From contig CAVPBK010000005.1 of NCBI GenBank assembly GCA_963701855.1, forward strand, positions 256,001-320,000: a DNA stretch of 64,000 bases, given 5' to 3'. Below the pieces are notes generated by a model. That model was not told the DNA's origin and searched no databases. It worked only from the letters and a program-made list of their open reading frames with translations. The first letter of the stretch is position 1, and each line of letters begins with the position of its first letter. The stretch comes from Nitrospirota bacterium (lineage in GTDB: Bacteria; Nitrospirota; Nitrospiria; Nitrospirales; Nitrospiraceae). Below, piece after piece: positions 13,143 to 45,908 of this stretch. Made by a program: the position numbers and the translations under genes.

Positions 13143-14216
13143 ATGAGTATTGTAGTCACCGGCGGCGCCGGGTTTATCGGCGCCAACTTCGTTCTCGATT
13201 GGCTGGCGCACAACGACGAGCCAGTCATCAACCTCGACAAGCTCACTTATGCGGGCAATCTGGAGAGTCTTGTCAGTCTGCAAGGCGACGCGCGGCATAT
13301 CTTCGTGCGGGGTGACATCGGAGAGACATCGTTGGTCGATCGATTGCTGGCCGAGCATCGCCCCCGGGCCATCATCAACTTTGCCGCTGAGAGTCATGTT
13401 GACCGGTCAATTCACGACCCTGGCGAATTCATCCAGACCAATATCGTCGGCACCTTTCATCTGCTGGAGTCCGTGCGTGCCTACTGGGACGCGCTGGAGG
13501 GCGAGGCTAAAGAACACTTCCGTTTTCTGCACGTGTCCACCGACGAGGTCTACGGCTCGTTAAGGAAAGATGACCCGGCCTTCAGAGAAACGAATCGTTA
13601 CGAACCCAATAGCCCCTATTCTGCCAGCAAAGCTGGCAGTGACCATCTGGTGCGTGCATTCCACCACACTTATGGCCTGCCAGTCCTCACGACCAACTGC
13701 TCCAACAACTACGGTCCCTACCACTTTCCTGAAAAGCTTATTCCGCTCGTCATCCACAATGCGCTGGCGGGCAAGCCGTTGCCTATCTATGGTGACGGCC
13801 AACAAATCCGCGACTGGCTCTATGTCAAAGACCACTGCAAGGCTATCCACCGGGTGCTCGAAGCGGGGCGTATGGGGGAAACCTATAACATTGGTGGCGG
13901 GCACGAAAAGGCTAATCTCGAAGTTGTCCAGACTCTGTGCGACATCCTGGACGAACTTGCTCCACCTGCCACCTGCCACTTACCATTTGCCACGTACCGC
14001 TCACTGATCACCTTCGTCAAGGATCGCCCAGGTCACGATCGCCGCTATGCCATTGACGCTAGTAAGCTTGAACGCGAACTGGGTTGGAAGCCCCAAGAAA
14101 CCTTTGAAACCGGCATTCGCAAGACGGTAGCGTGGTATCTGGAGAACCAGAACTGGGTTGCTAACGTGACCAGCGGTGCCTACCGCAACTGGGTCGAAAG
14201 GCAATATGGCGAATAG
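13143..14216 (+). CDS. rfbB: dTDP-glucose 4,6-dehydratase
   Basis: [30 protein letters not shown] and DRPGHDRRY motifs. Confidence 0.97.
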
Positions 14217-31436: not shown

Positions 31437-31478
31437 TTGACATAGATAGGCCAGGACCTGTATTGATACTAATTATCA
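31437..31478 (+). promoter_or_regulatory. Fur box downstream of a TTGACA -35 element
   Basis: TGATACT-A-ATTATCA (31464-31478) differs at one position from the 7-1-7 consensus TGATAAT-N-ATTATCA. TTGACA at 31437-31442. Upstream of iron-uptake genes. Confidence 0.8.
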
Positions 31479-31525
31479 AATTCAGAAATTCGCCGGTACT
31501 GCCAGTCACATAAGGCATTCGGCAA

Positions 31526-31586
31526 GAGGCCAGAGCACTTCGAGTCCAGAGCCCAGGGTCGCCAATCGGCGACTGTGGGCTTTTTT
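31526..31586 (+). promoter_or_regulatory. Leader motif copy 1: GAGGCCAGAG-N6-GAGTCCAGAG overlapping an intrinsic terminator
   Basis: Stem AGCCCAGGGTCGCC/aatc/GGCGACTGTGGGCT followed by a T run. Lies between the Fur box and tonB. Confidence 0.75.
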
Positions 31587-31604
31587 ATTGTGATGAGGGG
31601 CGAT

Positions 31605-32663
31605 GTGAACGGGTTCCAAGACAACTCCCAAATGCTGTTCCGTCTTGATGCGGAGGAATCAAGGCTTCGAGGGGAAAGTGCTGTTGCATGGCAGCAAATC
31701 TGTCGGCGGTTTCCGGTTCATAGGCAACCGGGGCATGGAGTCATCGTATCGCCATTTCAAGAGCAGTCATCTCCAATTACTCAACAAACAATATTTCGCT
31801 CACACAGTAAAGGCAGGGAGCATGCAGGTAAGCAGAGAAAGCTTCTAGGGTGGAACATATCAGTGTTGCTCCATGGTCTTGTCCTGACTGTTGTGACGGT
31901 GCTCAATCTTCACATGACTTCTCCACGAGTGACGCCACAGAAGGAGGCGTTCCATTGGGATGTGTCGCTCGTTTCGGTCCCCAAGACTGAACCCGTCGTT
32001 GCTGATGGAGTGCCGTCGCAAGAGGCTTTTCAGGCTGAAGAGATCTATCCTGAGGAAACGGGAGTCCGAGAGGTCGACTCATCGACTCAATCAGTAGAGT
32101 CGCTGCAGCAGATAGCGATCGTACAGACTATGTCATCGCCTGATAGAGCGCATCAACTCTTGTTTCCTCCAGAAAACAGGTCTCAGACGACAGAAGTATC
32201 CAGTAGGGCAACAACGATGTCCGTTGCCAGGCCCGTCGCGTCTATCTTGCCCCCTCCTGAAGTCGAGAACCAGACAGATTCGAAATTATTTCAACTTGAG
32301 ACGGAATTGGAAAATCCTACTGTGCTGCAACGCCCCCAAAGCATGACTCGAACTCCATTTAGCAAGACCATTCTCCCCGATTATGCATGGTTGATGGATA
32401 CGCTACGAACGAAGCTCGAGCGTGTCAAAACCTATCCAGCATTGGCAAAAGCCAACCATTGGCAGGGGCGTGTGGTCGTTCAGGTCCATATTGAAAGGGA
32501 TGGCCGCATTGCGAATTCGGAAATCGAAGAGAGTTCGGGACATGCGGTGTTGGATCGTGCGGCGCTGGAGGCCCTACAAGGCGTGTCGCCATTGATGCTC
32601 GCGCATGAACTGAATGGTAGTCCTGTCGTCATGTTGGTTCCCTTCAACTATCAACTCGAGTAA
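31605..32663 (+). CDS. Energy transducer TonB
   Basis: TM with SVLLHG motif, Pro/Glu-rich linker and C-terminal YPALAKANHWQGRVVV...SSGHAVLDRAA. Start uncertain. Confidence 0.85.
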   Translation: MNGFQDNSQMLFRLDAEESRLRGESAVAWQQICRRFPVHRQPGHGVIVSPFQEQSSPITQQTIFRSHSKGREHAGKQRKLLGWNISVLLHGLVLTVVTVLNLHMTSPRVTPQKEAFHWDVSLVSVPKTEPVVADGVPSQEAFQAEEIYPEETGVREVDSSTQSVESLQQIAIVQTMSSPDRAHQLLFPPENRSQTTEVSSRATTMSVARPVASILPPPEVENQTDSKLFQLETELENPTVLQRPQSMTRTPFSKTILPDYAWLMDTLRTKLERVKTYPALAKANHWQGRVVVQVHIERDGRIANSEIEESSGHAVLDRAALEALQGVSPLMLAHELNGSPVVMLVPFNYQLE

Positions 32664-32668
32664 ATCTT

Positions 32669-33205
32669 ATGCATGATCAGCGTCTTGTGCTCGAAACCTC
32701 GCTCTTTTATCAGTACTCCGGCGAACTGCTACGATTTCTGACTGCCAAACTAGGTTGCAGAGAACAGGCTGCTGATGTGGTGCAGGACACGTTCGTCCGT
32801 ATCCGCTGCCTGAAAGATTTGGCAGCCGTCGACCAGCCGCGCGCATTTCTTTACAAGACTGCGCTAAATCTCACGGTCGATCTGTTTCGACGGCAACGAG
32901 TCCGCGCCGAACGGATTGTCCAGCTTGAGGCGACCGAGGAAGTGCCATCCACGATACCGAGCCAGGACGTCGAGGTCGAGGCAAAAGAGCGTGTTCGACT
33001 TCTGTACGACGCGATCGCGGATCTCCCGCCCAAATGTCGACAGGTCTTTCTGCTCCATAAGTTCATGGATATTTCGCATGCGGAGATCGCCGCTCGTCTC
33101 GGGATTTCAAAGAACATGGTGGAAAAGCATGTGATGAAAGCCATGTCTCGGTGCCGGGAACGAGTTGAAGGCCTCGGGGACAACGGACACATCGATCCCT
33201 CATAG
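32669..33205 (+). CDS. FecI-type ECF sigma factor
   Basis: AADVVQDTF, PRAFLYKTALNL, LPPKCRQVFLL and EIAARLGIS..VEKH motifs. Adjacent to a FecR-like gene. Confidence 0.93.
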   Translation: MHDQRLVLETSLFYQYSGELLRFLTAKLGCREQAADVVQDTFVRIRCLKDLAAVDQPRAFLYKTALNLTVDLFRRQRVRAERIVQLEATEEVPSTIPSQDVEVEAKERVRLLYDAIADLPPKCRQVFLLHKFMDISHAEIAARLGISKNMVEKHVMKAMSRCRERVEGLGDNGHIDPS

Positions 33206-33235
33206 AGTGTCACTATATATATCAGCGACACACGG

Positions 33236-33266
33236 AGTCAGGTTTCTTCGGACTCTTGCGTCATAC
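33236..33266 (+). promoter_or_regulatory. Putative ECF-sigma promoter, copy 1 (upstream of fecR)
   Basis: AGTCAGGTTT-N7-CTC-N-TGCGTCA-N-AC, repeated ungapped at 36760-36790. Confidence 0.65.
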
Positions 33267-33316
33267 GACAGGGGAGCAGGAACTGGATAGGGTGATCTTT
33301 GCTTACAGGTTGAGAA

Positions 33317-34363
33317 GTGAATCGGATGAAGATCGTGCATGCTGTAACGGACGACCAGTTATCGACGGCTGATCAAGCACTTCGATGGTTCGTGCGGTTT
33401 CGGTCCGGCGATGCGACGGTCGCCGATCGGCGGAAGTTTCAGTCCTGGGTCAGGTCAGACCCGTCTCACCAACAGGAATTCGAGAAGATTTCCAGGCTTT
33501 GGATAGACCTTGACGAAACAAAACCGTTGCTCGCCGATGAGCTGAAGCGTGTCGTTGCCGATGGGAAATCCGAGGCTCATCGATCGCTTGAGAGGCATGC
33601 TGGACGATGGAGTACCTATGGACTTTCGAGCGCACTCGCAGCCTCTCTCATGTTGTTCATCGCAGTAGGCTGGTGGATGGTCGATCGACCAGAGACCGCG
33701 GTGTATCGGACTGTCAAGGGCGAACAGCGAACGGTTGCGCTCCCGGATGGGTCCAGGGTGATCCTGAATACCGATACCGCGGTCACGACGCAATTGTCCT
33801 CCTCTCGGAGGGGGGTGATTCTGCACAGAGGAGAAGCCTTCTTCGTCGTGTCGCATGACAAGCAGAGATCATTCGAGGTGGAGGCGGGCCGCGGAGTAAT
33901 TCGGGATATCGGCACACAGTTTACCGTCCGTCGGCAGTTGGAGCAGGTGACGGTGACTGTCGTAGAGGGTGCAGTAGAGGTACAGGGCCTATCGGAAAAA
34001 ATAGGCATAGCACCAGGGCAGCTTCTGACGGCCGGTGACAAGACGTCCTATGGGGCAGATGGCTTCCTCGCTCCAGTCGAAAAGATCGACATTGCCGTAT
34101 CCACCGCATGGATGGAAGGCAAAGTGCTGTTCGACCATCGTCCGTTGGCCGAGGTGATTCAGGAAATCGGTCGCTATCAAGAGGGAGAAATACGCGTCCT
34201 CGATCCCCGATTGAACGATCTCACAGTCAGTGGTGTATTTGGCGTCGATGATCGTGACGGGTTTCTGAGGGCACTTGAGACTGCAATTCCTGTGAAATCG
34301 ACCCGTGTAAACACAAGGTTAGTTGTTTTGGAGAAGAGCGATTTCCCCTCCCCTCGAAGATGA
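33317..34363 (+). CDS. FecR-type anti-sigma factor/transmembrane sensor
   Basis: QALRWFVR..FQSW..DPSHQQEF, a TM helix, and GEQRTVALPDGSRVILNTDT, GEAFF and IGTQF motifs. Confidence 0.93.
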   Translation: MNRMKIVHAVTDDQLSTADQALRWFVRFRSGDATVADRRKFQSWVRSDPSHQQEFEKISRLWIDLDETKPLLADELKRVVADGKSEAHRSLERHAGRWSTYGLSSALAASLMLFIAVGWWMVDRPETAVYRTVKGEQRTVALPDGSRVILNTDTAVTTQLSSSRRGVILHRGEAFFVVSHDKQRSFEVEAGRGVIRDIGTQFTVRRQLEQVTVTVVEGAVEVQGLSEKIGIAPGQLLTAGDKTSYGADGFLAPVEKIDIAVSTAWMEGKVLFDHRPLAEVIQEIGRYQEGEIRVLDPRLNDLTVSGVFGVDDRDGFLRALETAIPVKSTRVNTRLVVLEKSDFPSPRR

Positions 34364-34389
34364 GGGTTCATCGGTATCATTCGTCCAAG
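34359..34389 (+). promoter_or_regulatory. Putative ECF-sigma promoter, degenerate copy (upstream of exbB)
   Basis: TGAGGGTTCATCGGTATCATTCGTC matches copy 1 at 18 of 25 positions, with the same AGG-N16-CGTC spacing. Confidence 0.45.
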
Positions 34390-34445
34390 CGTAAGCGGTC
34401 GAGGTAATTCGGCCGCCGATTATTCATTTCATGAGGTGATCGATC

Positions 34446-34871
34446 GTGGAAGCACTGGAACATATGGTGGATTATGGTGTTATTGGATTACTCGTGGGTT
34501 TAAGCCTGTGGGCGTTGGCCGTGGCCGTGGAACGGTGGCTCTTCTATCGGCGAGTCACGTTGAACCAGTTTGACAATGTGCAAAGCATGGAGATCGCGTT
34601 GACCAGACGTCTGGTCGTCATTGGGACCGTCGCGGCCAATGCGCCCTATATCGGATTGCTAGGGACGGTCTTAGGCATCATGTTGACCTTTCATACCATG
34701 GGCACTTCGGGCACGATGGCCATGGGGACTATCATGGTCGGTCTCAGTTTGGCTCTCAAAGCGACGGCGGTGGGATTGTTGGTGGCGATCCCTTGTGTGG
34801 TGCTCAATAACATGCTGCGTCGACGGGTCTCCGAACTTCTGACACTCTACAGAGTGCAGCATGGAGCGTGA
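34446..34871 (+). CDS. exbB: TonB-system energizer ExbB (short type)
   Basis: NAPYIGLLGTVLGIM and ALKATAVGLLVAIP motifs. Confidence 0.93.
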   Translation: MEALEHMVDYGVIGLLVGLSLWALAVAVERWLFYRRVTLNQFDNVQSMEIALTRRLVVIGTVAANAPYIGLLGTVLGIMLTFHTMGTSGTMAMGTIMVGLSLALKATAVGLLVAIPCVVLNNMLRRRVSELLTLYRVQHGA

Positions 34872-35235
34872 GCTCAATCAGATCAATGTCATTCCATTAG
34901 TTGATGTCATGCTCGTGCTGTTGGTCATTGTCTTGACCACCGCGACCTTTATCTCGACTGGTCAAGTGCCGGTAGAATTGGCCAAGGCGAAAGAAGCCGG
35001 CGATCACAAGGACACGCCGTTGGTGATCACGCTCACGGCAGATGGGCGGATGTTCATTAACGATCAACCTGTGGGAGACGATGGTTTGAAAACGGTGCTG
35101 ACGTCGCACCCGAGAGAATCGTTTGTTGTGGTGCGCGCCGACCGGGTAACGGTGTTGGAACGGTTCGTGGGTGTGGTCGATGAGGTCCGAGGGTTGGGAT
35201 TTCGGCAGGTGAGTCTCGAGGTGGTTCGGTCATGA
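34861..35235 (+). CDS. exbD: Biopolymer transporter ExbD
   Basis: INVIPLVDVMLVLLVI and VRAD motifs. Confidence 0.93.
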   Translation: MERELNQINVIPLVDVMLVLLVIVLTTATFISTGQVPVELAKAKEAGDHKDTPLVITLTADGRMFINDQPVGDDGLKTVLTSHPRESFVVVRADRVTVLERFVGVVDEVRGLGFRQVSLEVVRS

Positions 35236-36077
35236 CAGCGGTCGAGATCAGCCAGGTAGCCAGAGGCCGCGAGGCGCATCATGCTCATGGCTGGATAGTT
35301 TCGATGCTGTGTCATGTGTTCGGCATCGGGAGCATTCTCTTGTTCATGGCGGACATCGAACCGCCGGTACTCCCGAACACATTTCAGTGGGAGGTCGCCA
35401 TGGTGGAAGCTCCGCCGACAGTGGAGCCGGCGCCTGCTCCACCGACGCCGACCCCCGTTCCTCAGCGCCAGGCTGAACGGTCCTTCGACCCTCGCCATCG
35501 TGCTCAAACCGCAGAGATGGTTCCACAAACAGTGCACGATATTGTTACTCCGATTGATGCGACGATGGAGCGCGCAATCATACAGACCACGGAAAGCTCG
35601 ACGGCAGTTACTCAGGCAGTTACCACCAATCACGAATCGGTGGCAGAGCAGGCAACCGTCACCTTTATGCAGAACTTGAGACAGGTGGAATTGGTAGAGC
35701 GAGAATCTCCTGCTTCCGACCCTCAATTATCCGCGATCGAGCATCGAGTCGTCCAACATCGGTTAGTGAAGGTTCGTGAGACGCAAGCCGACTATGGCTG
35801 GCTTCGGGATGCGCTCTGGGGTCGCATCCATGAGCTGAAGCGCTATCCATCGCTAGCCAAGGAGAACCATTGGGAAGGGAAGGTTGTGGTGCAAGCGGTA
35901 ATTCGCGCCGACGGTACAATCGTCGATTGTGAAGTTGCAGAAAGTTCTGGCCGGGCGATCCTGGATCAGGAGGCCCTGGCGGTTATGAGAAAAACCTCGC
36001 CGTTGATTCTCAAGCATCCGTTGGGGAAGCCGAGTATTACGCTACTTATTCCGATCACCTACAAGTTGGACGGCTAG
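35232..36077 (+). CDS. Energy transducer TonB (second paralog)
   Basis: SMLCH TM motif, Pro-rich linker and YPSLAKENHWEGKVVV...SSGRAILDQEA. Confidence 0.88.
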   Translation: MTAVEISQVARGREAHHAHGWIVSMLCHVFGIGSILLFMADIEPPVLPNTFQWEVAMVEAPPTVEPAPAPPTPTPVPQRQAERSFDPRHRAQTAEMVPQTVHDIVTPIDATMERAIIQTTESSTAVTQAVTTNHESVAEQATVTFMQNLRQVELVERESPASDPQLSAIEHRVVQHRLVKVRETQADYGWLRDALWGRIHELKRYPSLAKENHWEGKVVVQAVIRADGTIVDCEVAESSGRAILDQEALAVMRKTSPLILKHPLGKPSITLLIPITYKLDG

Positions 36078-36158
36078 CATCAAGGCCCCGCCTGGGTCAC
36101 GGTGATCGTAGAGGAGGAGAATACATTACGTGACTGAACGATAAACAGGAGAATCATC

Positions 36159-36617
36159 ATGATGAATTACTCGATGATCCGGCGCATATCCACGTTGTGC
36201 CGCGTGCTATGTGTGATGTTGGCATGTTCTGTGATTGGAAGTTCTGTCTGGGCGCAAACCAAGACTGACAAAGTCTTCCATGCCGTGGCGATGGATGCCA
36301 AGGGGGTCGAAACGGACATGAAGAACGTCATGTTCTATTGGGAGGAAAAAATCAGTGAGACGGCCTTCGTGCCGCACGAAGGCCGCGAAGTACCGGTCAA
36401 GCGCGGCACGGCCACGGTCAAGATCAAATTCGAGGCTATTAACCACATCGATCTCAAACCTTCCGGGAACGGCGCTCTGCCGAACGTCACGATTACACTC
36501 AATGACGGCAAGACGGGAGACTTCGTCCTCGCCATCGCGGGCAGTTTCAAAGGGCAATCAGACTTCGGAGAGGTTGAGCTGCCGGCAACTGAACTGAGGA
36601 AGCTCAGCTTTAGATAG
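36159..36617 (+). CDS. Exported hypothetical protein
   Basis: AGGAG RBS, Sec-type signal (VWA-QT) and a beta-rich mature region. Confidence 0.7.
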   Translation: MMNYSMIRRISTLCRVLCVMLACSVIGSSVWAQTKTDKVFHAVAMDAKGVETDMKNVMFYWEEKISETAFVPHEGREVPVKRGTATVKIKFEAINHIDLKPSGNGALPNVTITLNDGKTGDFVLAIAGSFKGQSDFGEVELPATELRKLSFR

Positions 36618-36759
36618 CGCCGCAAGCCATGCGACGTCGGGTAGACCCTCGCGGACGTTCATGCGCTTCTCAATTTCGGCTTTCCCTGACTCTGAAGCTG
36701 AACCGGTTTGGTGTCCCTGTCCCAGGCCATCACCAGCTGGCTATCTTTTCCGACGGAGA

Positions 36760-36790
36760 AGTCAGGTTTTTCAATTCTCATGCGTCAAAC
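36760..36790 (+). promoter_or_regulatory. Putative ECF-sigma promoter, copy 2 (upstream of the Com-like gene and receptor)
   Basis: AGTCAGGTTT-TTCAATT-CTC-A-TGCGTCA-A-AC. Confidence 0.65.
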
Positions 36791-36867
36791 CTATCGTGGA
36801 TGGGATTCGGCCTCTGTGCTCTCGTTGAGCAGGACGATAAATTTTTCTCCAGGGGCCAGGGGGGGCA

Positions 36868-37056
36868 ATGAGTGAACAGCGTGCGTCGGCGCCGGCTGCC
36901 ATGGATGTTCGATGTCGCTGTGGCAGGCTGATTGCTCGATGGGAAGGACACAGTCTTGTCATCAAGTGCACTCGATGCGGGCGTTTCGTACAGATTCACT
37001 CTTCGGCCATCAGTGGAACGCCACCTCCTGATCTGAGATCAGGGTCCCACCGGTAA
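36868..37056 (+). CDS. Com-like zinc-ribbon protein (phage Mu Com family-like)
   Basis: DVRCRCGRLIAR-x6-LVIKCTRCGRFVQI matches the Com pattern [IV]RC..C.[KR]L[LI]...I[KR]C.RC. G-rich RBS upstream. Confidence 0.7.
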   Translation: MSEQRASAPAAMDVRCRCGRLIARWEGHSLVIKCTRCGRFVQIHSSAISGTPPPDLRSGSHR

Positions 37057-37086
37057 TCCCGTCCACAGACAGGCGTTTGTCCGCAC

Positions 37087-37150
37087 GAGGCCAACGGAAC
37101 TTGAGTCCAGAGCCCACGGCTGCTTAGGCAGCCGTGGGCTCTGTTGTTTT
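37087..37150 (+). promoter_or_regulatory. Leader motif copy 2 with intrinsic terminator, between the Com-like gene and the receptor
   Basis: GAGGCCA-N9-GAGTCCAGAG. Perfect 16-bp stem CAGAGCCCACGGCTGC/ttag/GCAGCCGTGGGCTCTG followed by TTGTTTT. Confidence 0.78.
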
Positions 37151-37196
37151 CTAGAGGCAATGAGAACAAGTCAGTGCTGAGAAAGGAATAACGGCG

Positions 37197-39674
37197 ATGA
37201 CATGGCGCGAGATGGGAATTGGGTTGGGAGTGTTCGTATTGTTGATCGTATTGGCGTTCGTGGTGACACATTCTGCGTTTGCGCAGTCGGATGCGGTGAC
37301 CGTCACCATTCCACCTCAAGAGTTGTCGACAGCGCTGACGGCATTGGCCGAACAGACGAATCTGCAAGTACTCTATGCATCGGAACTTGCGAGCGGGAAA
37401 ATGACGAAAGGAGTCGCCGGCACGGTCACCGCGCAGGAGGCTATCCAACAGCTGATAGAAGGCACCGGTCTGGCCTATACGTTTACCGACGCCAAGACCG
37501 TGACGCTTCAGGCTGCGACACCGGCTGTGATGATCCCGGGCAATCTCTCTGCTCAGCCGGAACTCGGGACGATCAAACAGAAACCGATTAAAGTTCCAGA
37601 AGTTGTGGTGAAAGACGTCAGGACGCGCAGCTACACCGCCGATGAGGCCTCCAGCGCCACCAGGATTCCGATTCCCATTGAAGACGTTCCACGCTCTGTT
37701 GAGACCGTCACACGACAAGTAATTGATGACCAGAAAGTCATTCGTATGAGCGACGCGCTTCGGAATGTGAGCGGAACCTCTATGCCAAGTACACAGGGCG
37801 GCCGAGGCGGCGACTTCATGATCCGGGGTTTTCGGTCTGATCTGAACGTGTTCAAGAACGGCTTTCGGGAAGATAGTACGTTCGCTGCCCGGGCTGCACG
37901 GGACATCGCGAACCTCCAGAATATCGAAGTCGTGAAGGGACCACCTTCCTATCTCTATGGCCGAGCCGACCCGGGCGGTGTGATCAACCAGATTACCAAG
38001 GACCCGCTCCGAACACCCTACTACTCGGGTGAAATGATCTTTGGAAGCTACAACCTCTACCGGCCGACCATTGATATCGGCGGTCCGCTCAACGACAGCA
38101 GAACACTGACGTACCGGCTCAACGGCGTCTATGAGTCAGCCGAGAGCTATCGCGAAGGGGTTAAGAGCGAACGGGTATTCCTTGCGCCGACATTTGGTTG
38201 GGAAGCGACCTCACGGGACACATTTCGGCTTGAGCTCGAGTATCTCTATGATCGGTCCCCCATCGATCGAGGTCTGGTCGCAGTGGGAAGCGGTCCGGCG
38301 AATATTCCGATCGGCCGGTTTCTTGGAGACCCCACGAAGCGAGGAGAGATCAATCAGGGGAAGGCGACGTTGCAGTATCTTCATCAGTTCAACGAGATGT
38401 GGAAATGGCGAACCGCTGTGCGTATGGCCGTCACATCGGAAACCTATAACAGTCTCGAATCCTGGTTCATGGATGATGCAACAGGGAATCTCAGTTTGGC
38501 GGCGTTTCACATTCCATCGCTCGTACAAAGCAATTATATGCAGAATGAGGTACACGGTCTGTTTTCGACCGGGTCGGTGAAGCACAAGCTCTTAGCGGGT
38601 GTCGAGCTGGGATGGGAGTATTCGAAGCAGCAAGTACTTTCCGACTCTTTCGACTTCGCCAATTTGAACACCATCAATATTTATAATCCCTCCTATTCTT
38701 TTCACAATAACCGCTTGGACTCACAGTTTAACGGCACAACTAAAAACCAGATCGTGGGTGTCTATGCCGGCGATCAAATCAATCTGCTTGAGAACTTAAA
38801 GATGAATGTGGGTGGCCGGTTCGATTACTTCCATCAGAAGCAGGAGCTGAACCCCAATTCGTTCGATTCAACAAGCAGCACGGACGGACAGACCAAGAAT
38901 GCCTTCAGTCCGTCGATCGGGATCGTCTATCAACCGATCAAGCCGATCTCGTTGTTCGCCGATTTTACCCAGTCATTCGCCCCGCAATCTTCCATATCGC
39001 GAAGTGTCACCGGCCAAATATTCGAACCTGAGCGGGGACAGCAGGTCGAGGGAGGTATTAAATTTCAAGCGTACGAAGGAAAATTGCGGGCTACGATGGC
39101 CGTGTTTGAAATCAAAAAGAAGCACGTGCTCACCGCCGACGTCAGCCAAGGGCCGGGGTCCGGATTCTCCATCGCCACCGGAGAACAACGCAGCAAAGGC
39201 TTTGAATTCGACATTGCAGGACAGGTCCATCCAGGATTAGAGATCATCGGCAACTATGCCTACATCGATGCGCGCGTCACCCAAGACAATCTATTTGCCA
39301 TTGGCAGCCGCCTGCCGAATGTTCCTTTGAACCAAGGGAGTATCTGGGCCAAGTATGTCTTTCAAGAGGGTGTCGTGAAAGGGTTCGGAGCCGGGCTGGG
39401 AATGTACGCGCAAAGTAATCGTCAAGGTATTTTCCAGTGTCAGGATCCGATCCAGTGTCAGGCACCCTTCAATTTAGCTGGTTTCGTGCGCATGGATGGG
39501 GCGTTGTACTATTACAAACCGGAGGTATTTTCAGGAAGCAATCTGCTCGCGTCGTTGAACTTCACGAATCTACTGGATCAGCGCTACATGACCGGGGCGC
39601 AAAACTTCCGTGAAATTATCTACACCGGCGCACCATTGACGGTGATTGGTTCGCTGAAACTGGAGTTCAATTAG
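37197..39674 (+). CDS. TonB-dependent siderophore receptor with N-terminal signalling (STN) domain
   Basis: Signal peptide, STN (IPPQELSTALTALAEQT), plug (DVPRSV, IEVVKGPPSYLYG..PGGVINQITK) and a beta-barrel ending LKLEFN. Confidence 0.95.
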   Translation: MTWREMGIGLGVFVLLIVLAFVVTHSAFAQSDAVTVTIPPQELSTALTALAEQTNLQVLYASELASGKMTKGVAGTVTAQEAIQQLIEGTGLAYTFTDAKTVTLQAATPAVMIPGNLSAQPELGTIKQKPIKVPEVVVKDVRTRSYTADEASSATRIPIPIEDVPRSVETVTRQVIDDQKVIRMSDALRNVSGTSMPSTQGGRGGDFMIRGFRSDLNVFKNGFREDSTFAARAARDIANLQNIEVVKGPPSYLYGRADPGGVINQITKDPLRTPYYSGEMIFGSYNLYRPTIDIGGPLNDSRTLTYRLNGVYESAESYREGVKSERVFLAPTFGWEATSRDTFRLELEYLYDRSPIDRGLVAVGSGPANIPIGRFLGDPTKRGEINQGKATLQYLHQFNEMWKWRTAVRMAVTSETYNSLESWFMDDATGNLSLAAFHIPSLVQSNYMQNEVHGLFSTGSVKHKLLAGVELGWEYSKQQVLSDSFDFANLNTINIYNPSYSFHNNRLDSQFNGTTKNQIVGVYAGDQINLLENLKMNVGGRFDYFHQKQELNPNSFDSTSSTDGQTKNAFSPSIGIVYQPIKPISLFADFTQSFAPQSSISRSVTGQIFEPERGQQVEGGIKFQAYEGKLRATMAVFEIKKKHVLTADVSQGPGSGFSIATGEQRSKGFEFDIAGQVHPGLEIIGNYAYIDARVTQDNLFAIGSRLPNVPLNQGSIWAKYVFQEGVVKGFGAGLGMYAQSNRQGIFQCQDPIQCQAPFNLAGFVRMDGALYYYKPEVFSGSNLLASLNFTNLLDQRYMTGAQNFREIIYTGAPLTVIGSLKLEFN

Positions 39675-39719
39675 ATGTGCCGGGAAGGTTGCGCAGCCCG
39701 GTCTTGGTTGGGCTAGGCC

Positions 39720-40874
39720 GTGAACCGCATGCCTTGGCAGAAGCTGTGGCTGCGGGTTCATTGGTGGCTCGGTCTCTTTGCCGGGGCGATGTTTGTTTTC
39801 ATCGGGCTCACCGGAAGCACCTTGGTGTTCTATCAGGTTCTCGATGTATGGCTGAATCCGGAGCGACTCACGACAGGGGGTCGAGGAAGCTATCGTTCGT
39901 TTGATGAGATGGCGACGGCAGCTCGAATGGCGCGGCCCGATGTGCCAGGACCCTATGTCCTCTTGTTGCCGTCCGATACCCAGGGCGTGGTGGTTGCCTG
40001 GTTCAAGAAGTCTACTGGCGAGCAGGGGCGCGCCCAGGAGATCGAAGTTGCGATCGATCCGTACAGTTCAAGAGTTTTGAGCAAGGATCGTATGTGGGGC
40101 AGCACCCCGGTCTCGTTTGTCTACGAATTTCACCAAGCCCTGCTACTGGAAACGGTTGGGGAAACCATTCTCGGTTTCTTCGCCTTCTTCCTGTTGTTGT
40201 CGGTTTCCACAGGTCTCTACCTCTGGTGGCCAAAGCCGGGAAGAATTCGAGAAGCGTTTACGATCAAGTCTGATGGGAGCCGTCTCCGGAGCCTGTATGA
40301 CCTGCATAAGCTCAGCGGGATTTCGGGCGCGCTGATTCTGCTTGTTCTCGCTTCAACGGGCCTATATCTGGAGTTTCCCGCATACGTCAGCCCACTGGTC
40401 GGGTCGATTTCGCCATTTCCCGAAGAGCCTGTATTGCGTTCGAACGCAGGTTCGGAGAGACGATCTATTCCGATCGATCGGGCCGTCACGATCGCCCAGT
40501 CTATCTTTCCATCCGGTGAACTGAAGTGGGTCGGGTTGCCGCAACAGCGCGATGACGTCTACCAGATCGGTCTGCGTCAATCCGAGGAGGTTCGGCGTTC
40601 GAGTGGCGAAAGCATTGTTTGGCTGGATCAGTATAGCGGTGAGGTTTTACATACGCGCGACTGGAATCGACTTACTGGCGGAGAAACGTTCCTTGCCTGG
40701 CTGTTTCCCTTGCACAACGGCGAAGCGTTCGGACTAATAGGGCGATGGATCGTGTTCGTGACTGGATTTATTCCCTCCGTGCTCTATGCCACCGCGCTTC
40801 GGATGTGGTGGTTGAAGCGAAAGGCGCATATGCGGCGAAAAGCGAGTGTCGACTCCTCACCTGCGAACGCCTGA
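39720..40874 (+). CDS. PepSY-associated TM helix protein (ferrisiderophore reductase-like)
   Basis: HWWLGL..GLTGS, YEFH, TGLYLWWP, DLHKLSG and PLHNG conserved His motifs. Confidence 0.9.
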   Translation: MNRMPWQKLWLRVHWWLGLFAGAMFVFIGLTGSTLVFYQVLDVWLNPERLTTGGRGSYRSFDEMATAARMARPDVPGPYVLLLPSDTQGVVVAWFKKSTGEQGRAQEIEVAIDPYSSRVLSKDRMWGSTPVSFVYEFHQALLLETVGETILGFFAFFLLLSVSTGLYLWWPKPGRIREAFTIKSDGSRLRSLYDLHKLSGISGALILLVLASTGLYLEFPAYVSPLVGSISPFPEEPVLRSNAGSERRSIPIDRAVTIAQSIFPSGELKWVGLPQQRDDVYQIGLRQSEEVRRSSGESIVWLDQYSGEVLHTRDWNRLTGGETFLAWLFPLHNGEAFGLIGRWIVFVTGFIPSVLYATALRMWWLKRKAHMRRKASVDSSPANA

Positions 40875-41053
40875 TATTCCCATGAGTTACGTTTTCCCGC
40901 CCATCCGGCATGGGATCTATCTTTTCGGCAAGGATTCAACCCTGGCGCGGTGTCTAGAGGAGGAGTTACACCACATGAGGTTATTTCTAGTTCATACGTC
41001 ACATCTATATGGGTGGGTTGAGGGAAGATGGCGGCTGCGCTGAATGTTCTTCT

Positions 41054-42121
41054 ATGAACAAAAAGAAGATTTCAATCGTTCTGGCGGTATTCGCAGTGAT
41101 CGTCATTCTGATGATCAAGCTGTGGGATCGACCGACAAGCGGGTCGGCTGTGTTCACAGAATCGGCCGAAGGGCCCATGTTGGTGGATGTTTCACCGGTT
41201 ATGGTCGGCTCGATTACTGAATCAATTCAGGCAGTCGGTACGCTGCAGGCTATTGCCTCGATCATGATTAGGCCGGAAATTGCCGGGATAGTTCGCCGGA
41301 TCCATTTTGCTGATGGGCAATTCGTCGAACGAACAGTTCCTCTCGTCGAAATGGATCCGGAGGAACTTCAGGCACAAGCCAATCAAGCCGCAGCTCAAGA
41401 AAAAATGACGCAAGTCACATACGAACGTCTCAAGCGGCTCGCTGCTCAACAGACGACGATTGTGCCCACTCAGCAAGTCGATGAAGCCAGGTTAGCCCTC
41501 CAAGCCGCCGCCGCCAATACGGTGCTGTATGCCACGCGCTTGAAGAAAACCATCATCCGTGCTCCGTTCAGCGGCACGGTGGGTTTTCGTCGAGTGTCGG
41601 TCGGGGATTACATGCAACCAGGACAGGATATTGTGAATCTCGAAGATCTGAGCACCCTTCACGTGGACTTCAAGGTGCCCGAGGTGTGGCTCAGTCAGCT
41701 CTTCGTGGACCAACGTTTGATCGTCACGACCGATGCGTTTCCCAATGTCTCGTTTGAAGGATGTGTATCGGCGATCGATCCGCGGATCGATTCGGTCAAT
41801 CGAACGGTCGCCGTTCGTGCGGCGGTTCCCAACCCCGAAGGAACACTTCGTCCCGGTCTCTTCGCGACGGTTCGGTTGACGCACGGACAGGATACTCACG
41901 CCCTGCTAATCCCGGAAGAGGCGGTGTTTCTGCAACGGGACAAGGTCATGGTATTTCGCGTGGAGGATCAAACTGCCCGGTTGACGGAGATCGCGGTCGG
42001 CGCGCGCGAACGGGGGATGGTCCAGGTGCGCACCGGTTTGAAGGAAGGCGATCATGTCGTACGTACCGGCACGCATAAGGTGCGCGAAGGTCTCCGGGTT
42101 TCCGTCAAGTCATCTCAGTAA
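41054..42121 (+). CDS. RND efflux periplasmic adaptor subunit
   Basis: IRPEIAGIV, IRAPFSG, LRPGLFA, IPEEAV and GLKEGDHVV motifs. Confidence 0.92.
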   Translation: MNKKKISIVLAVFAVIVILMIKLWDRPTSGSAVFTESAEGPMLVDVSPVMVGSITESIQAVGTLQAIASIMIRPEIAGIVRRIHFADGQFVERTVPLVEMDPEELQAQANQAAAQEKMTQVTYERLKRLAAQQTTIVPTQQVDEARLALQAAAANTVLYATRLKKTIIRAPFSGTVGFRRVSVGDYMQPGQDIVNLEDLSTLHVDFKVPEVWLSQLFVDQRLIVTTDAFPNVSFEGCVSAIDPRIDSVNRTVAVRAAVPNPEGTLRPGLFATVRLTHGQDTHALLIPEEAVFLQRDKVMVFRVEDQTARLTEIAVGARERGMVQVRTGLKEGDHVVRTGTHKVREGLRVSVKSSQ

Positions 42122-42178
42122 GAAAGGCTCACCCGTTCGCATGCTCAGCTTCAACACACATTTCTTCCGGCTATCAGT

Positions 42179-45100
42179 ATGAAGCTGTCAGAGACATCAA
42201 TCCATCGCCCTGTGTTTGCCATCGTACTGACGCTGTTGCTGGTCCTGTTCGGTGGGCTGAGCTTCACGCGTCTTTCCGTGCACGAATATCCCGATATCAA
42301 ACCTCCGATTGTCTCGGTACGCACGGTGTACCTTGGAGCCAGTGCGTCCGTGATCGAAACGGATGTGACCACTCCCATCGAGGATGCGCTCAGCGGGATA
42401 CAGGGGCTGAGAACCATCACGTCTGCGAGTCGGGAAGAAGCCTCATCGGTGACCCTGGAGTTCGATCTGGGTCGTGATTTGGACGGCGCTACAAACGACG
42501 TACGGGATCGAGTCGCATTGACTCGCGCGCTGTTGCCGCTGGGGATTCAAGAGCCCATCGTATCTAAGGCCGCATCGGACAATACCGAAGTGATGTGGAT
42601 GGCGCTGTCCAGCGTCCGTCATTCAGAATTGGAACTTTCGGATGTCGCCGATCGTTTTATCAAAGTCCGCATGGCCATGGTTTCGGGAGTTTCGAGCGCG
42701 TATTTGGACGGGGAACGTCGGTACGCGATGCGAATATGGTTGGACCCCGATCGTCTCGCTGCACGCCGCTTAACCGTCCAGGATGTCGAAGAGGCGATTC
42801 GAAACCAGAATGCTTCGATCCCTGCGGGACGGATCGAAAGCGATCAAATGGAATTCGGCGTATCGCTCAGGGGGACGTTGCATACCCCGGAGCAATTCGA
42901 GCAACTTATCATTGCCACCCGCGAAGGCTATCCCGTTCGGTTACGCGATGTCGCTCGAGTCGAACTCGGAGCTGAAGATTCCCGCAAGCTCGGCCGTCTG
43001 AACGGTACCTCGTCGATCGGCATCGGCGTCTCGAAGCAATCCAAAGCCAATCCCTTGGCCGTCGCCCGCACGCTCAAAGAGCAGCTCCCTGGCATTGCCG
43101 CCGGTTTGCCGGAAGGGATGAACCTGACAATTGCCTGGGATAGTTCGACTCCGATCGAACGGTCGTTGCACGAGGTCTATGTGGCGTTGGGGCTGTCGCT
43201 GGTGCTTGTCGTGGTCGTGATTTTTGGCTTTTTGGGCAACGCCAGGGCCACGCTTGTGCCGGCCGTTGCGATTCCTGCTTCGATCATCGGGACCTTCACG
43301 GTCATGGCCGTCACGGGGTGCTCTCTGAACGTGCTGACGTTACTCGGACTCGTTCTGGCTGTGGGGTTGGTGGTCGATGATGCCATCATCGTGCTTGAAA
43401 ATATCCATCGACGGATTGCCGACGGGATGCCGCCATTGCAGGCGGCTGCCGAAGGCACGAAAGAAATTTCGTTTGCTGTAGTGGCGACGACGATCTCACT
43501 CGTGACCGTGTTCGTCCCGATCACGTTTCTAAGCGGCCTCGTTGGGCGCCTCTTTGCCGAATTGGCCATCGCGGTGGCCTCGGCCGTGCTGCTGTCCGGT
43601 TTTGTCGCGCTGACGCTGACGCCGATGATGTGCGGATACTTGCTTCGTCCTGAAACGAAGCAGTCGACCTGGAACCGGTTGGCTGCGCGAGCGTCGGAGC
43701 GTCTCGCCGCCGTCTATCGGCGCGCACTGGTATGGACCATGGAGGCGAAGGTCATGGTCGTGATCTTGGCCATAGGCGCGAGTCTGGGAAGTTTGGTTGT
43801 CCTGAAACATCTGCCGTCCGAACTGGCCCCGCATGAAGACGCAGGATGGTTCTCAGGGTTTCTCACGGCTCCACAAGGCGCGACCATTCGCTACACCGAC
43901 ACCTATGCCCGAGAGTTGGAATCGTTAATCCAATCCGTTCCGGAGGTCTCGATGCTCTATACGGTTGTGGCGCGAGGAGAGCGCCCTACGATCGTCAATC
44001 GGGCTGCGAGTTGGGTGACGCTACGGGATTGGAATGATCGGACTAGGAGCCAACAGGAGATTGTCGCTGCACTGAATCGAGATCTTGGCAGACTGACCGG
44101 CGTAAAGGCGTATTTGCTGAATCCATCTCCCATCGAAGAATGGTCGGAGAAAACTCCCGTACAGTTCGTGATTGGGGGCTTGGAGTATCAGGAGTTGCAA
44201 AAGGTTGCCGAAGGGTTGCTTGCGAAGCTGGCGGCTCATCCGGGATTTGTAACGCCGGATATGGACTTAGCGCAGAATACTCCGCATGTCGTCGTTGATA
44301 CGCATCGGGAGAAAGCCGCGGACCTTGGGGTATCGGTTGTCACCATCGGGCGTACGCTTCAAACGTTGCTCAGCGGGAGTCCGGTCAACACATTCGCGCG
44401 AAACGGGCGCCAGTATAACGTGATCGTCAAGGTCGACGATCAACGTCGCGAAAAGCCGTCCGACATCAGCGCGCTCTATGTGAGAGGGAAAGAAGGAGTA
44501 TTGGCTCAGCTGAGCAATCTCGTGACCGTGCGGGAGGAGCCCGCGCCCGAATCATTGCATCATGTCGATCGTATGCGCGCGGTGACGATCAGCGCAGGGT
44601 TGACTGAGGGGTTTACCCTCGGGCAAGCGTTAGCCTATCTCGATCAAACGGTTCACGAGATGCTCCTTCCGAACATGCGGACAAGCTACGCGGGAGAATC
44701 GAAAACCTTCGTGGAAAGCAATGCGAATCTGTACATGACCTTCGCACTTGCGCTGGCGGTGATCTTTCTAGTTCTCTCCGCCCAATTCGAAAGTTTCCGG
44801 CATCCCTTCACGATTCTCTTGGCAGTGCCTCCGGCTGTCTCAGGAGCGGTACTCGCGCTGACTATTACTCGAGGCACACTGACGATCTATAGCCAAATCG
44901 GGTTGGTGATCTTGATCGGACTTGCCACGAAGAACGCCATTTTGATCGTGGAGTTTGCCAATCAACTTCGGGATCGAGGCGTGGATCTGGTGGATGCCGT
45001 GATCGAGGCAGCGACATTGCGGCTGCGACCGATTCTCATGACAACCTGCGCCACGATTCTGGGCACCCTTCCGCTTGTGTTCGCGACCGGCGCCGGCGCT

Positions 45101-45241
45101 GCCAGCCGACGACAAATTGGAATCGTGTTGGTTGGGGGGCTGGTCGTTTCGACCCTGGTCACGCTTTTTCTCGTTCCGGCTGCGTATGCGATCCTGTCAA
45201 GCCGTAGAGAGAGACCGAAACTTCCGCAATCATTGAATTAG
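42179..45241 (+). CDS. RND efflux permease (AcrB/AcrD/AcrF family)
   Basis: RPVFA, GLVVDDAIIVLENI, KNAILIVEFA and RLRPILMT motifs. 1020 aa. Confidence 0.95.
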   Translation: MKLSETSIHRPVFAIVLTLLLVLFGGLSFTRLSVHEYPDIKPPIVSVRTVYLGASASVIETDVTTPIEDALSGIQGLRTITSASREEASSVTLEFDLGRDLDGATNDVRDRVALTRALLPLGIQEPIVSKAASDNTEVMWMALSSVRHSELELSDVADRFIKVRMAMVSGVSSAYLDGERRYAMRIWLDPDRLAARRLTVQDVEEAIRNQNASIPAGRIESDQMEFGVSLRGTLHTPEQFEQLIIATREGYPVRLRDVARVELGAEDSRKLGRLNGTSSIGIGVSKQSKANPLAVARTLKEQLPGIAAGLPEGMNLTIAWDSSTPIERSLHEVYVALGLSLVLVVVVIFGFLGNARATLVPAVAIPASIIGTFTVMAVTGCSLNVLTLLGLVLAVGLVVDDAIIVLENIHRRIADGMPPLQAAAEGTKEISFAVVATTISLVTVFVPITFLSGLVGRLFAELAIAVASAVLLSGFVALTLTPMMCGYLLRPETKQSTWNRLAARASERLAAVYRRALVWTMEAKVMVVILAIGASLGSLVVLKHLPSELAPHEDAGWFSGFLTAPQGATIRYTDTYARELESLIQSVPEVSMLYTVVARGERPTIVNRAASWVTLRDWNDRTRSQQEIVAALNRDLGRLTGVKAYLLNPSPIEEWSEKTPVQFVIGGLEYQELQKVAEGLLAKLAAHPGFVTPDMDLAQNTPHVVVDTHREKAADLGVSVVTIGRTLQTLLSGSPVNTFARNGRQYNVIVKVDDQRREKPSDISALYVRGKEGVLAQLSNLVTVREEPAPESLHHVDRMRAVTISAGLTEGFTLGQALAYLDQTVHEMLLPNMRTSYAGESKTFVESNANLYMTFALALAVIFLVLSAQFESFRHPFTILLAVPPAVSGAVLALTITRGTLTIYSQIGLVILIGLATKNAILIVEFANQLRDRGVDLVDAVIEAATLRLRPILMTTCATILGTLPLVFATGAGAASRRQIGIVLVGGLVVSTLVTLFLVPAAYAILSSRRERPKLPQSLN

Positions 45242-45324
45242 CCAAATCGACATCGTGAAGGATACGGACGGAGCTATCGAGCTTCGTCACTTCGGTCAGA
45301 TGTTACGAAAACTCGCATTTGAAT

Positions 45325-45351
45325 GCCCCGCCCGGAAGGGCGGGGTTCTTT
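45325..45351 (+). terminator. Probable intrinsic terminator of the receptor-RND operon
   Basis: GCCCCGCCC/ggaa/GGGCGGGGT followed by TCTTT. Confidence 0.6.
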
Positions 45352-45452
45352 ACTCACCCGCGGTACTTACGAGGCCTCGCGAATCCCCACTTGGTTTTTC
45401 AGTTTCTTCCAGCAATCCGTAAAATAAATAAGTTGTGTGGGCGGTATAGGGC

Positions 45453-45493
45453 TTGCCATGCAAATTATTATATGATATTGTTTCTCAATATCA
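45453..45493 (+). promoter_or_regulatory. Sigma70-type promoter overlapped by a Fur-box-like palindrome
   Basis: TTGCCA(45453)-17-TATTGT(45476). TGATATT-G-TTTCTCA lies within a perfect 8-5-8 inverted repeat, TGATATTG-tttct-CAATATCA. Confidence 0.72.
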
Positions 45494-45533
45494 GACAGTG
45501 CAACGCTCTTCCGAGCGCCGATACATAGCAGCT

Positions 45534-45592
45534 GAGGCCAGAGTCATTCAGGACGGAGCCCAAGGTCATCGCAAGTGGCCGTGGGCTTTTTT
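45534..45592 (+). promoter_or_regulatory. Leader motif copy 3 with intrinsic terminator
   Basis: GAGGCCAGAG...GAGCCCAAGGTCAT/cgcaa/GTGGCCGTGGGCTTTTTT. An extra GAGCGCC sits at 45513-45519. Confidence 0.72.
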
Positions 45593-45686
45593 ATTGGTGC
45601 AGGGACAAGAAGATTCCGGAATCTGTGGGACTGATGCGAGGCAAACGAGATCATCGGATAGACCCAATTCAGGGAGGGCTCAGCGG

Positions 45687-45867
45687 ATGTATATCTGTCT
45701 GTGCAAAGGGATCAAGAAGGATGAGCTCTGTGAAATCGTGGCACGGCATCGGGCTGTCCTCAAGCAGTGAAATCAGCCATGGGGCGGGATGAGTCTTTTG
45801 CGGTCGATGCGAGCAGAAATTGGAATCCATGATTTATCACGTTTCAGCAAGTCTGCTGAACGATTGA
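45687..45867 (+). pseudogene. Bfd-like [2Fe-2S] ferredoxin, frameshifted
   Basis: MYICLCKGI..., then in shifted frames CPQAVKSAMG and CGRCEQKLE. GGAGG RBS. Confidence 0.7.
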
Positions 45868-45908
45868 ATAAGGAGCTGAAGGTGGCTCAACAGATGAAAG
45901 GATGGGCG

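Follow-up and report, generated by a model that had tools for sequence, protein, structure and literature searches.

A conserved terminator-like RNA leader of iron acquisition genes in Nitrospirales and its possible control by a Com-family zinc-ribbon protein

How is the iron acquisition island of a Nitrospira genome regulated, given that three related noncoding elements stand in it, each shortly before a gene block, and that a gene for a small protein resembling Com of phage Mu directly precedes one of them? The island lies in a stretch of 64,000 nucleotides (nt) that was analyzed as a whole (the window). In soils, waters, and treatment plants, Nitrospira oxidize nitrite and perform complete ammonia oxidation; their iron demand is high (nitrite oxidoreductase, hemes, and iron-sulfur proteins), and post-transcriptional control is essentially unexplored in the phylum. 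A preliminary description, made from the nucleotide sequence alone, had proposed that the Com-like protein antiterminates the iron operons. The analysis presented here identifies the elements as a Nitrospirales-wide cis-acting RNA leader for which no earlier description was found. That a Com-family protein acts on these terminator leaders of Fur-controlled iron operons, and does so by antitermination, is a reading to which we give about even chances of being correct.

The elements are ~70 nt long and lie on the plus strand at 31520 to 31590 (copy 1), 37081 to 37149 (copy 2), and 45528 to 45596 (copy 3). Each contains GAGGCCA (starting at 31526, 37087, and 45534), followed at an offset of 23, 23, and 22 nt, respectively, by GAGCCCA, which forms the 5' arm of a hairpin with GTGGGCT as its closing arm and a T-rich run behind it. 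In copies 1 and 2, GAGTCCAGAG begins 16 nt past GAGGCC. Box 1 of copy 1 (GAGGCCAGAG) occupies 31526 to 31535 and box 2 (GAGTCCAGAGCCCA) occupies 31542 to 31555, with the terminator hairpin at ~31548 to 31583 and a T run after it; the hairpin of copy 2 (37108 to 37143) has 16 pairs and an interrupted T run, and that of copy 3 (~45555 to 45589) again ends in a T run. The upper stems are unlike in sequence but paired (GGTCGCC/GGCGACT in copy 1, GGCTGC/GCAGCC in copy 2, and GGTCAT/GTGGCC in copy 3). Cores of 69 to 76 nt gave fold energies of -34.2, -39.7, and -24.3 kcal/mol in copies 1, 2, and 3, with z scores of -4.6, -4.7, and -1.9. The boxes, spacings, hairpins, and T runs first described all hold on re-reading, and the folds of the three copies bear out that the upper stems vary yet stay paired. 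An additional small hairpin that would show box 1 in its loop was predicted for copy 1; its pairs are just 76% paired across the family, and it is not claimed here.

In the genome searched (genus Nitrospira; 4,297,576 bases in 15 contigs; 97% complete), the GAGCCCA-hairpin pattern occurs at the three window sites only, plus the minus strand of the palindromic copy 2, and GAGGCCA-N10-25-GAGCCCA occurs at the same three sites and at one unrelated site. A covariance model built from the three window copies (R1), which scores them at 85.2, 83.1, and 75.4 bits in order, found a fourth, diverged and weaker copy outside the window (G000:C6:197176-197244). A generic dispersed repeat is ruled out, because the strict motif is confined to the three window sites genome-wide, with four real model matches in the genome; the supposition that the motif is not spread through the genome was therefore sound. 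The hairpin of copy 2 (37108 to 37143) is a near-perfect 16-bp palindrome, which accounts for the score of 36.5 bits on its minus strand and for its possible function as a two-way terminator.

Rfam 15 gave no match in the window at gathering thresholds and none at an E value of ≤1 between 31400 and 45700, which rules out a known Rfam family. Of 61 relatives searched, none but the genome of the window itself contained the exact pattern, which was too strict; covariance models were therefore used instead. R1 gave full-length matches in 66 of the 85 genus genomes, including 40 of the 47 of high quality, with one match per genome in most and up to eight in some. A second covariance model (R2), applied to 151 evenly sampled genomes from the phylum, matched 18 of 18 genomes of the same family, six of seven of the second family of the order, the single genome of a further family of the class, and one of three of a distant family. 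The RNA family is thus present in the genus and across the order. Neither Rfam 15 nor the accessible part of the literature on Nitrospira iron and small RNAs and on Com-type proteins yielded an earlier description of the RNA family or of an RNA-binding regulator at these loci, in agreement with the initial remark that no described chromosomal regulator of this kind was known.

Comparison across the family supports the predicted structure. In an alignment of 125 matches (120 distinct), fitted to the model and thereby favoring structure, 93% of hairpin cells are paired, versus 84.5% when shuffled, and double changes occur at 12 pairs. Covariation was 0.335, versus 0.181 for shuffled alignments, a value that 0 of 500 shuffles reached, and slid controls gave ≤0.092. 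One pair of the upper stem is CG in 66 sequences, UA in 29, GC in 8, UG in 6, AU in 5, and GU in 5. The support for the structure is clear despite the model-fitted alignment, since the slid controls are low and the pair types of the upper stem are many.

Although the upper stem covaries, the lower stem (AGAGCCCA/UGGGCUYU) is nearly invariant in sequence; a relative at the class level (G213) carries the compensatory CCCG/CGGG in place of CCCA/UGGG. The boxes A-GGCCA and CC-R-GAG are likewise nearly invariant among the 120 sequences, and the U-rich tail is also conserved. The lower stem and the boxes are constrained beyond the need of a plain terminator, which points to sequence-specific recognition. 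The preliminary description had written the boxes as GAG-N-CC. GAGGCCA and GAGCCCA do stand in all three window copies, but throughout the family conservation lies in A-GGCCA and CC-R-GAGCCCA rather than in GAG-N-CC itself.

The genes that follow the RNA connect the family with iron. Of 119 sense matches in the loci compared, 115 have an open reading frame (ORF) of ≥55 amino acids (aa) starting within ~220 nt downstream; after removal of three duplicates of the same places, 112 ORFs, drawn from related genomes and not independent of one another, were scanned for protein families. HD_5 (HD-GYP-like) was found in 20, TonB-dependent receptor in 14, TonB in 13, extracytoplasmic function (ECF) sigma factor in 9, ExbB in 6, AraC-type regulator in 2, and cytochrome c, BFD, and a porin-like protein in 1 each; 45 had no family, and among these, inspection by eye found more bfd-like ORFs and at least six com-like ORFs. 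HD_5 is the commonest gene right behind the RNA (loci L033, L035, L038, L041, L044, L096, L102, L105, L108, and others). Its frequency hints that iron status is tied to cyclic-di-GMP turnover in Nitrospira. In G213, the element stands before ECF sigma-FecR-receptor cassettes; on the minus strand of one locus of this genome (L128; G213:C15), tandem RNA copies at 13547 to 13614 and 17697 to 17763 each precede such a cassette. In a genome of the distant family (G114), the element stands before a porin-like/FMN_bind operon beside feoB.

The placement of the elements is that expected of attenuators: a GC-rich hairpin with a U run lies on the sense strand upstream of an ORF, and all matches near com are on the gene strand. 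The next ribosome-binding site or start follows ~0 to 50 nt after the T run, and immediately in operon-internal copies, which would leave no room for a promoter. A consensus promoter scan of the gaps (0 to 95 nt) behind the three window copies found no promoter-like site, with ECF-type promoters outside the scan. An ECF-type promoter within copy 2 was considered by eye and is not claimed here. Because of the downstream gene families and this placement, the element is best described as a leader or intercistronic gate of iron acquisition genes. The original tie to iron genes is borne out by Pfam matches in the window, at the locus of the fourth copy, and in the downstream ORFs of relatives.

The candidate partner is a 62-aa protein encoded at 36868 to 37056 on the plus strand. 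The earlier assignment of this ORF to the Com family survives narrowly: it matches PF10122 (Zn_ribbon_Com) with a marginal 23.7 bits against a cut-off of 22.9 (E value, 3.3e-5). A profile comparison with phage Mu Com (sequence taken from AF083977) using hhalign gave a probability of 92.2% and an E value of 6e-7 over 31 columns covering the ribbon. Close homologues are few (7 at an E value of ≤1e-3 in a large protein collection). Residues R15, C16, C18, G19, L21, A23, C34, R36, C37, R39, and G50 are invariant in 21 relatives, and the four invariant cysteines (C16, C18, C34, and C37) predict a two-knuckle zinc ribbon. PF10122 was matched at an E value of ≤0.01 by 10 of the 21 family members. Taken together, the 62-aa ORF appears to be a borderline but real Com-family zinc ribbon.

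Structure and names added little. An AlphaFold2 model has four strands and a mean predicted local distance difference test score of 75; Foldseek found no match to it in PDB and BFVD at an E value of ≤0.001, the protein being too small for this comparison to inform. Sequence searches of solved structures with the Com-like profile and Mu Com as queries found nothing significant and no Com chain, and NCBIfam holds no name for the protein. The nearest Protein Atlas clusters, from Myxococcota, Nitrospirota, and Thermodesulfobacteriota, are automatically named Com family, which is a lead only. No phage genes were seen in the loci read; for a mom homologue, no genome-wide search aimed at it was made.

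Does the Com-like protein go with the RNA? A com-like match was found in 76 of the 85 genus genomes. After removal of antisense and partial matches overlapping sense ones, 106 sense RNA matches remained in the genus, and for 67 of these a com-like match lies on the same contig, without exception on the same strand (67 of 67) and within 8.5 kb in 64 cases. Three arrangements recur: com and then the RNA after 25 to 51 nt (10 matches), the RNA and then com after 26 to 66 nt (7 matches), and com followed by the RNA at a fixed distance of 3.36 to 3.44 kb (33 matches). The converse view starts from com-like loci (the best 80 of 390, one genome per species): 72 of the 80 contain a same-strand RNA, and several of the eight without one end close to the com gene. 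Among the 117 same-strand RNA matches of these loci, 26 lie ≤120 nt after com, 13 lie ≤120 nt before com, and 16 lie at 3.2 to 3.6 kb; these 117 matches in 0.68 Mb compare with 0.13 to 0.27 expected (0.39 per Mb genus-wide).

The association extends beyond the genus. In the phylum sample, com-like genes and the RNA were both found in all 18 genomes from the family, in 7 of 7 and 6 of 7, respectively, of the second family, in the single genome of the further family, and together in one of three of the distant family. The two are ~3.4 to 3.6 kb apart in six genomes of the second family, and in G114 the RNA lies ~95 nt past com. A Fur box considered before the com-like gene of G114 was dropped, as the AT-rich stretch proved to be coding. 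The cultured "Ca. N. defluvii" also carries the module (locus L108). A functional link is favored because the varied tight arrangements, always on the same strand, survive order-level divergence. Co-occurrence with com-like genes, which the preliminary description had named as a check of its proposal, is thus seen throughout the genus and order and also in one other family of the phylum.

Evidence on what the protein might recognize comes from published work on Com. In the accessible part of PMC6483171, SELEX (systematic evolution of ligands through exponential enrichment) with the zinc-finger domain of H. sputorum Com gave GAG(N)2CC as the core, with a bipartite form in 868 of the 999 sequences; the Com-bound element is CC(N)2-3GAG in a single-stranded or hairpin-loop context, affinity for duplex RNA is weak, and the native site GAAUGCCUGCGAGCAUCCCACGGAG partly overlays the translation inhibition hairpin. 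The GAG and CC boxes that the preliminary description ascribed to the Com target therefore agree with this source. Mu RNA reads CC-UGC-GAG-CAU-CCCAC, with the Shine-Dalgarno sequence in the loop and then GUGGG with a GUG start, and the Nitrospira leaders read CC-A-GAG-C-CCA(N), followed by the upper stem, UGGGCU, and a U run (CCAC...GUGGG in copy 2 and CC-R-GAG in the family). This likeness of the boxes offers an independent argument that the Com-like protein may recognize them, as a resemblance rather than a test.

On the plus strand upstream of copy 1, a promoter-like site (31438 to 31487) consists of TTGACA at 31438 and TATTGA ~18 nt further on, overlapped by a Fur-box match at 31464 to 31478; copy 1 sits ~80 nt past TTGACA, and the -10-like hexamer overlaps TGATACTAATTATCA. 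The latter has one mismatch to the 7-1-7 Fur-box consensus. A genome-wide scan found five sites with ≤2 mismatches, and 31464 is the sole site with one. Both promoter and Fur box are retained in copy-1-type relatives. Copy 3 likewise lies behind its own plus-strand promoter-like site (TTGCCA-17-TATTGT, 45453 to 45487) with a Fur-box-like match at 45473 to 45487; this match has three mismatches and is by itself weak and within chance, and the promoter/box block, including ATATGATATCGTTTCTCAATATCA, is kept in copy-3-type relatives. The genome contains one FUR-family gene, and the copy 1 and copy 3 promoters are presumably under Fur control.

These promoters also bear on another explanation, in which the elements are Fur-repressed trans-acting small RNAs (sRNAs) analogous to RyhB and PrrF, copies 1 and 3 being ~100 to 115 nt long, the intra-operon copies being derived from 3' ends, and the Com-like protein being a chaperone or itself titrated. 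It would suit this explanation that copies 1 and 3 have Fur-box promoters ~45 to 60 nt upstream and that each unit ends in a strong terminator, as would a 5' hairpin of the copy 3 type that varies with pairing retained. Furthermore, an Hfq family search gave no match in the 97%-complete genome, so that another RNA-binding protein could take that role. If the absence of Hfq is general in Nitrospira, RNA regulation there must use other RNA-binding proteins. On the other hand, no separate promoter is evident for the iron genes downstream, and in operon-internal copies the T run leads straight to the following ribosome-binding site. In addition, complements of the boxes are not enriched near a Shine-Dalgarno sequence plus start in what is a crude test (11 of 172 and 15 of 206, versus 17 of 272, 8 of 211, 15 of 257, and 14 of 285 for controls), and no Rfam sRNA family matches. 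This explanation seems unlikely and is left with a rather limited chance; the evidence speaks against an exclusively trans role, and a dual role in cis and trans is conceivable.

Antitermination by the Com-like protein would combine these observations as follows. The leader comprises a GGCCA box and then a CC-R-GAG-C-CCA box, the 3' half of which forms the 5' arm of a predicted intrinsic terminator, and it lies between putatively Fur-controlled promoters or upstream cistrons and iron genes with no evident promoter of their own. Its partner would be the chromosomal Com-family Cys4 zinc-ribbon protein from the same operons. By default, the leader would act as a strong terminator. Under iron starvation, Fur would free the promoters, and the cell would then make the Com-like protein, which is encoded both by a cistron of the window island and by the leading cistron of a conserved Fur-box operon at another place in the genome. 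The protein would bind the CC-N-GAG boxes while they are single-stranded and stop GAGCCCA-UGGGCU pairing, and RNA polymerase would then read through into tonB/exbBD, receptor, ECF sigma, bfd, HD-GYP, and com genes. The outcome would be a feed-forward, self-reinforcing second tier beneath Fur, which would explain why com is often right behind or right before the leader. All predictions of the preliminary description that could be examined computationally turned out in its favor. The observations themselves show the RNA family with its structure and iron context, its linkage to com-like genes, the homology to Com, and the likeness of the motif. What we infer from them is that the protein binds the RNA, that it antiterminates, and in which direction it acts; metal sensing by the Cys4 site is pure speculation.

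The opposite direction has little in its favor. A Com-like protein that represses, stabilizing the terminator or a box-1/box-2 fold and so shutting the iron genes off, is conceivable because box 2 lies partly within the stem, where a hairpin-binding protein could clamp it. However, at -24 to -40 kcal/mol the hairpins have great stability to begin with, so that a stabilizer would add little, and com is cotranscribed, behind Fur-box promoters, with the genes to be silenced. The weak binding of Com to duplex (PMC6483171, accessible part) argues the same way, and we consider repression very improbable.

Several observations weigh against antitermination by the Com-like protein. Copy 1 is upstream of the very com gene that would need to open it. 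The family assignment is marginal, as 11 of 21 members miss PF10122 at an E value of ≤0.01, and the first knuckle is CxC, compared with CxxC in Mu, with a one-residue gap in the alignment. The spacers of the boxes are 1 nt in Nitrospira versus 2 to 3 nt in the Com motif. All linkage counts are inflated by shared descent (related genomes with conserved synteny); 39 of the 106 genus RNA matches are on a contig without a com-like match, many of these contigs being short; and by genome, 4 have the RNA without a com match and 14 have com without an R1 match. R2 also gave weak and doubtful matches (E values, 1e-6 to 8e-4) in nine more genomes, from families without com-like genes. Finally, the hairpin abuts ribosome-binding sites, so that translational control fits too.

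The linkage data among these points could be accommodated by an attenuator independent of Com, i.e., a plain terminator, a ligand- or metal-sensing one, or the site of another factor, with com merely syntenic in the iron regulon. Synteny through common descent, the RNA matches on contigs lacking com, and the weak matches in com-less families would all be expected of it. Against it stand the three close arrangements, with the same strand kept over order-level divergence, and the small size of the element, since one hairpin and two short boxes are too simple for a typical ligand pocket. The boxes also match the published Com recognition motif (PMC6483171, accessible part). An attenuator of this type is accordingly rated as quite unlikely.

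The position of the ribosome-binding sites raises a further alternative, translation or stability control as in Mu, in which the protein would bind the boxes of the full-length mRNA, open or remodel the hairpin just 5' of the downstream ribosome-binding site, and so activate translation or protect the RNA, with termination being constitutive and partial. Such is the action of Com itself in Mu (PMC6483171, accessible part), where the inhibitory stem CCCAC/GUGGG resembles the lower stem found here, and many downstream starts (TonB, HD_5, and com) are ~0 to 20 nt from the T run. Unlike in Mu, however, the Shine-Dalgarno sequences and start codons lie outside the stem, the T runs are typical of intrinsic terminators, and the start is 28 to 95 nt away for receptors, ECF sigma factors, and bfd. 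Mu-like control is judged to be unlikely, with a modest chance of being correct.

A bolder extension of the antitermination reading would make the Cys4 protein a metal-responsive RNA switch (zinc versus iron, apo versus holo), whose ribbon would fold and bind the CC-N-GAG boxes only when correctly loaded with metal; protein and leaders would form a bacterial counterpart under Fur of the eukaryotic iron regulatory protein/iron-responsive element (IRP/IRE) pair. The promoter-driven copies 1 and 3 would additionally serve to buffer the protein, as decoys or sRNAs, and phage Com would have been domesticated once at the root of Nitrospirales, setting the iron economy of these globally important nitrifiers. 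We regard this extension as a long shot.

The genes around the elements, all on the plus strand, form the blocks first described, i.e., a tonB-fecI island, a receptor-PepSY-RND block, and a bfd operon, and Pfam confirmed them. A TonB-like gene lies directly behind copy 1 (31575 to 32663; TonB_C, 5.3e-16); judging from homologous starts in relatives, its real start is probably an ATG or GTG at ~31593 to 31605, 3 to 15 nt from the T run. Pfam further identified an ECF sigma factor (32669 to 33205), FecR (33317 to 34363), ExbB (34446 to 34871), ExbD (34861 to 35235), and a second TonB (35232 to 36077). The ORF list then gives two conserved ORFs of 152 and 80 aa (36159 to 36871), with no match in Pfam or NCBIfam, of which the 80-aa ORF overlaps the com-like start by 4 nt. 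This pair lies between the genes for the second TonB and the Com-like protein, and in one relative (L037) similar-sized ORFs stand at the corresponding position. As noted before, GAGGCCA of copy 2 begins 30 nt past the stop of the 62-aa ORF, the edge of the element (37081) being 24 nt past it. Behind copy 2 follow a TonB-dependent receptor with an STN domain (37197 to 39674), PepSY_TM (39720 to 40874), and an adaptor (41009 to 42121) and a pump (42179 to 45241) of the resistance-nodulation-division (RND) type.

An ordinary terminator-like hairpin on the same strand (45325 to 45346) closes the RND block, and copy 3 therefore opens a new unit. The bfd-like gene of this unit (45687 to 45870, 95 nt behind copy 3) is broken by two frameshifts in the assembly and split over three frames, with two 1-nt losses, one of them in a G run, relative to an intact 60-aa homologue (L010); another homologue (L048) matches Fer2_BFD at 1.8e-4. 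Either the gene is a pseudogene, or homopolymer errors of the assembly account for its broken state.

The conserved Fur-box operon elsewhere in the genome encodes a second Com-like paralogue of 59 aa (C6:193580-193759), the first cistron past an AT-rich Fur-like box. It is followed by genes for a porin-like protein, a lipoprotein, FMN_bind, and a membrane protein, the fourth RNA copy, HD_5, and a di-heme peroxidase-like protein. ApbE, ExbBD-TonB, and bacterioferritin genes flank the operon, and the sole FUR gene is ~8 kb upstream. The operon (G000:C6:193580-199747; L033, 4580 to 10747) is conserved and, from its gene content, looks like an uncharacterized flavin-dependent iron uptake or reduction system.

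Each part considered here is of a known kind, be it the RNA binder of the Com family, the leader with an intrinsic terminator, or the Fur regulon; what is new is how they are combined, together with the chromosomal setting, the terminator as target, and the RNA family. If antitermination by the Com-like protein is true, the fold of a phage translational activator has become a chromosomal regulator governing a core nutrient regulon, zinc ribbons of the Com type can control terminators besides translation, and Fur regulons may carry a second tier of protein and RNA.

How do these leaders compare with known systems? BglG/LicT with its RAT sites and HutP are RNA-binding antiterminators that act on terminator leaders, and TRAP and PyrR are the converse. 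The logic is alike, in that the protein site overlaps the 5' arm of the terminator and the regulator is often encoded in its own operon, whereas the Nitrospira protein has an unrelated 60-aa zinc-ribbon fold; we know of no ligand or phosphorylation input to it. With the sRNAs RyhB, PrrF, and NrrF, the Nitrospira elements share a Fur-box promoter, a length of ~100 nt, a terminal terminator, an iron regulon, and paralogous copies, but most copies are intercistronic with the next ribosome-binding site adjacent, and there is no Rfam match at an E value of ≤1. For HemP/HmuP/ChuP (PMC9131926), small regulators whose genes come first in heme or siderophore uptake operons, no conserved terminator RNA is known; these proteins belong to another family, without a Cys4 ribbon, and no homology to the Com-like protein was detected with Pfam or NCBIfam. 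What the two have in common is a small protein coencoded with TonB-dependent uptake genes, which in HemP/HmuP/ChuP affects receptor expression.

The closest counterpart is Com/mom of phage Mu. In both systems, CC and GAG words alternate and abut a CCCA(C)/(G)UGGG stem, there is a small zinc-ribbon protein of the Cys4 type, with homology detectable between the two, and its gene is directly upstream of the presumed RNA target and the regulated gene. Unlike Mu, the Nitrospira setting is chromosomal and iron related, with no phage or mom genes seen nearby in the loci read, and the protein has a CxC first knuckle. The Nitrospira hairpin has a long GC stem and is followed by a T run, as a terminator is, and the Shine-Dalgarno sequence and start lie outside it. 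There are several targets per Nitrospira genome (four in the genome analyzed here), and the family spans a whole bacterial order.

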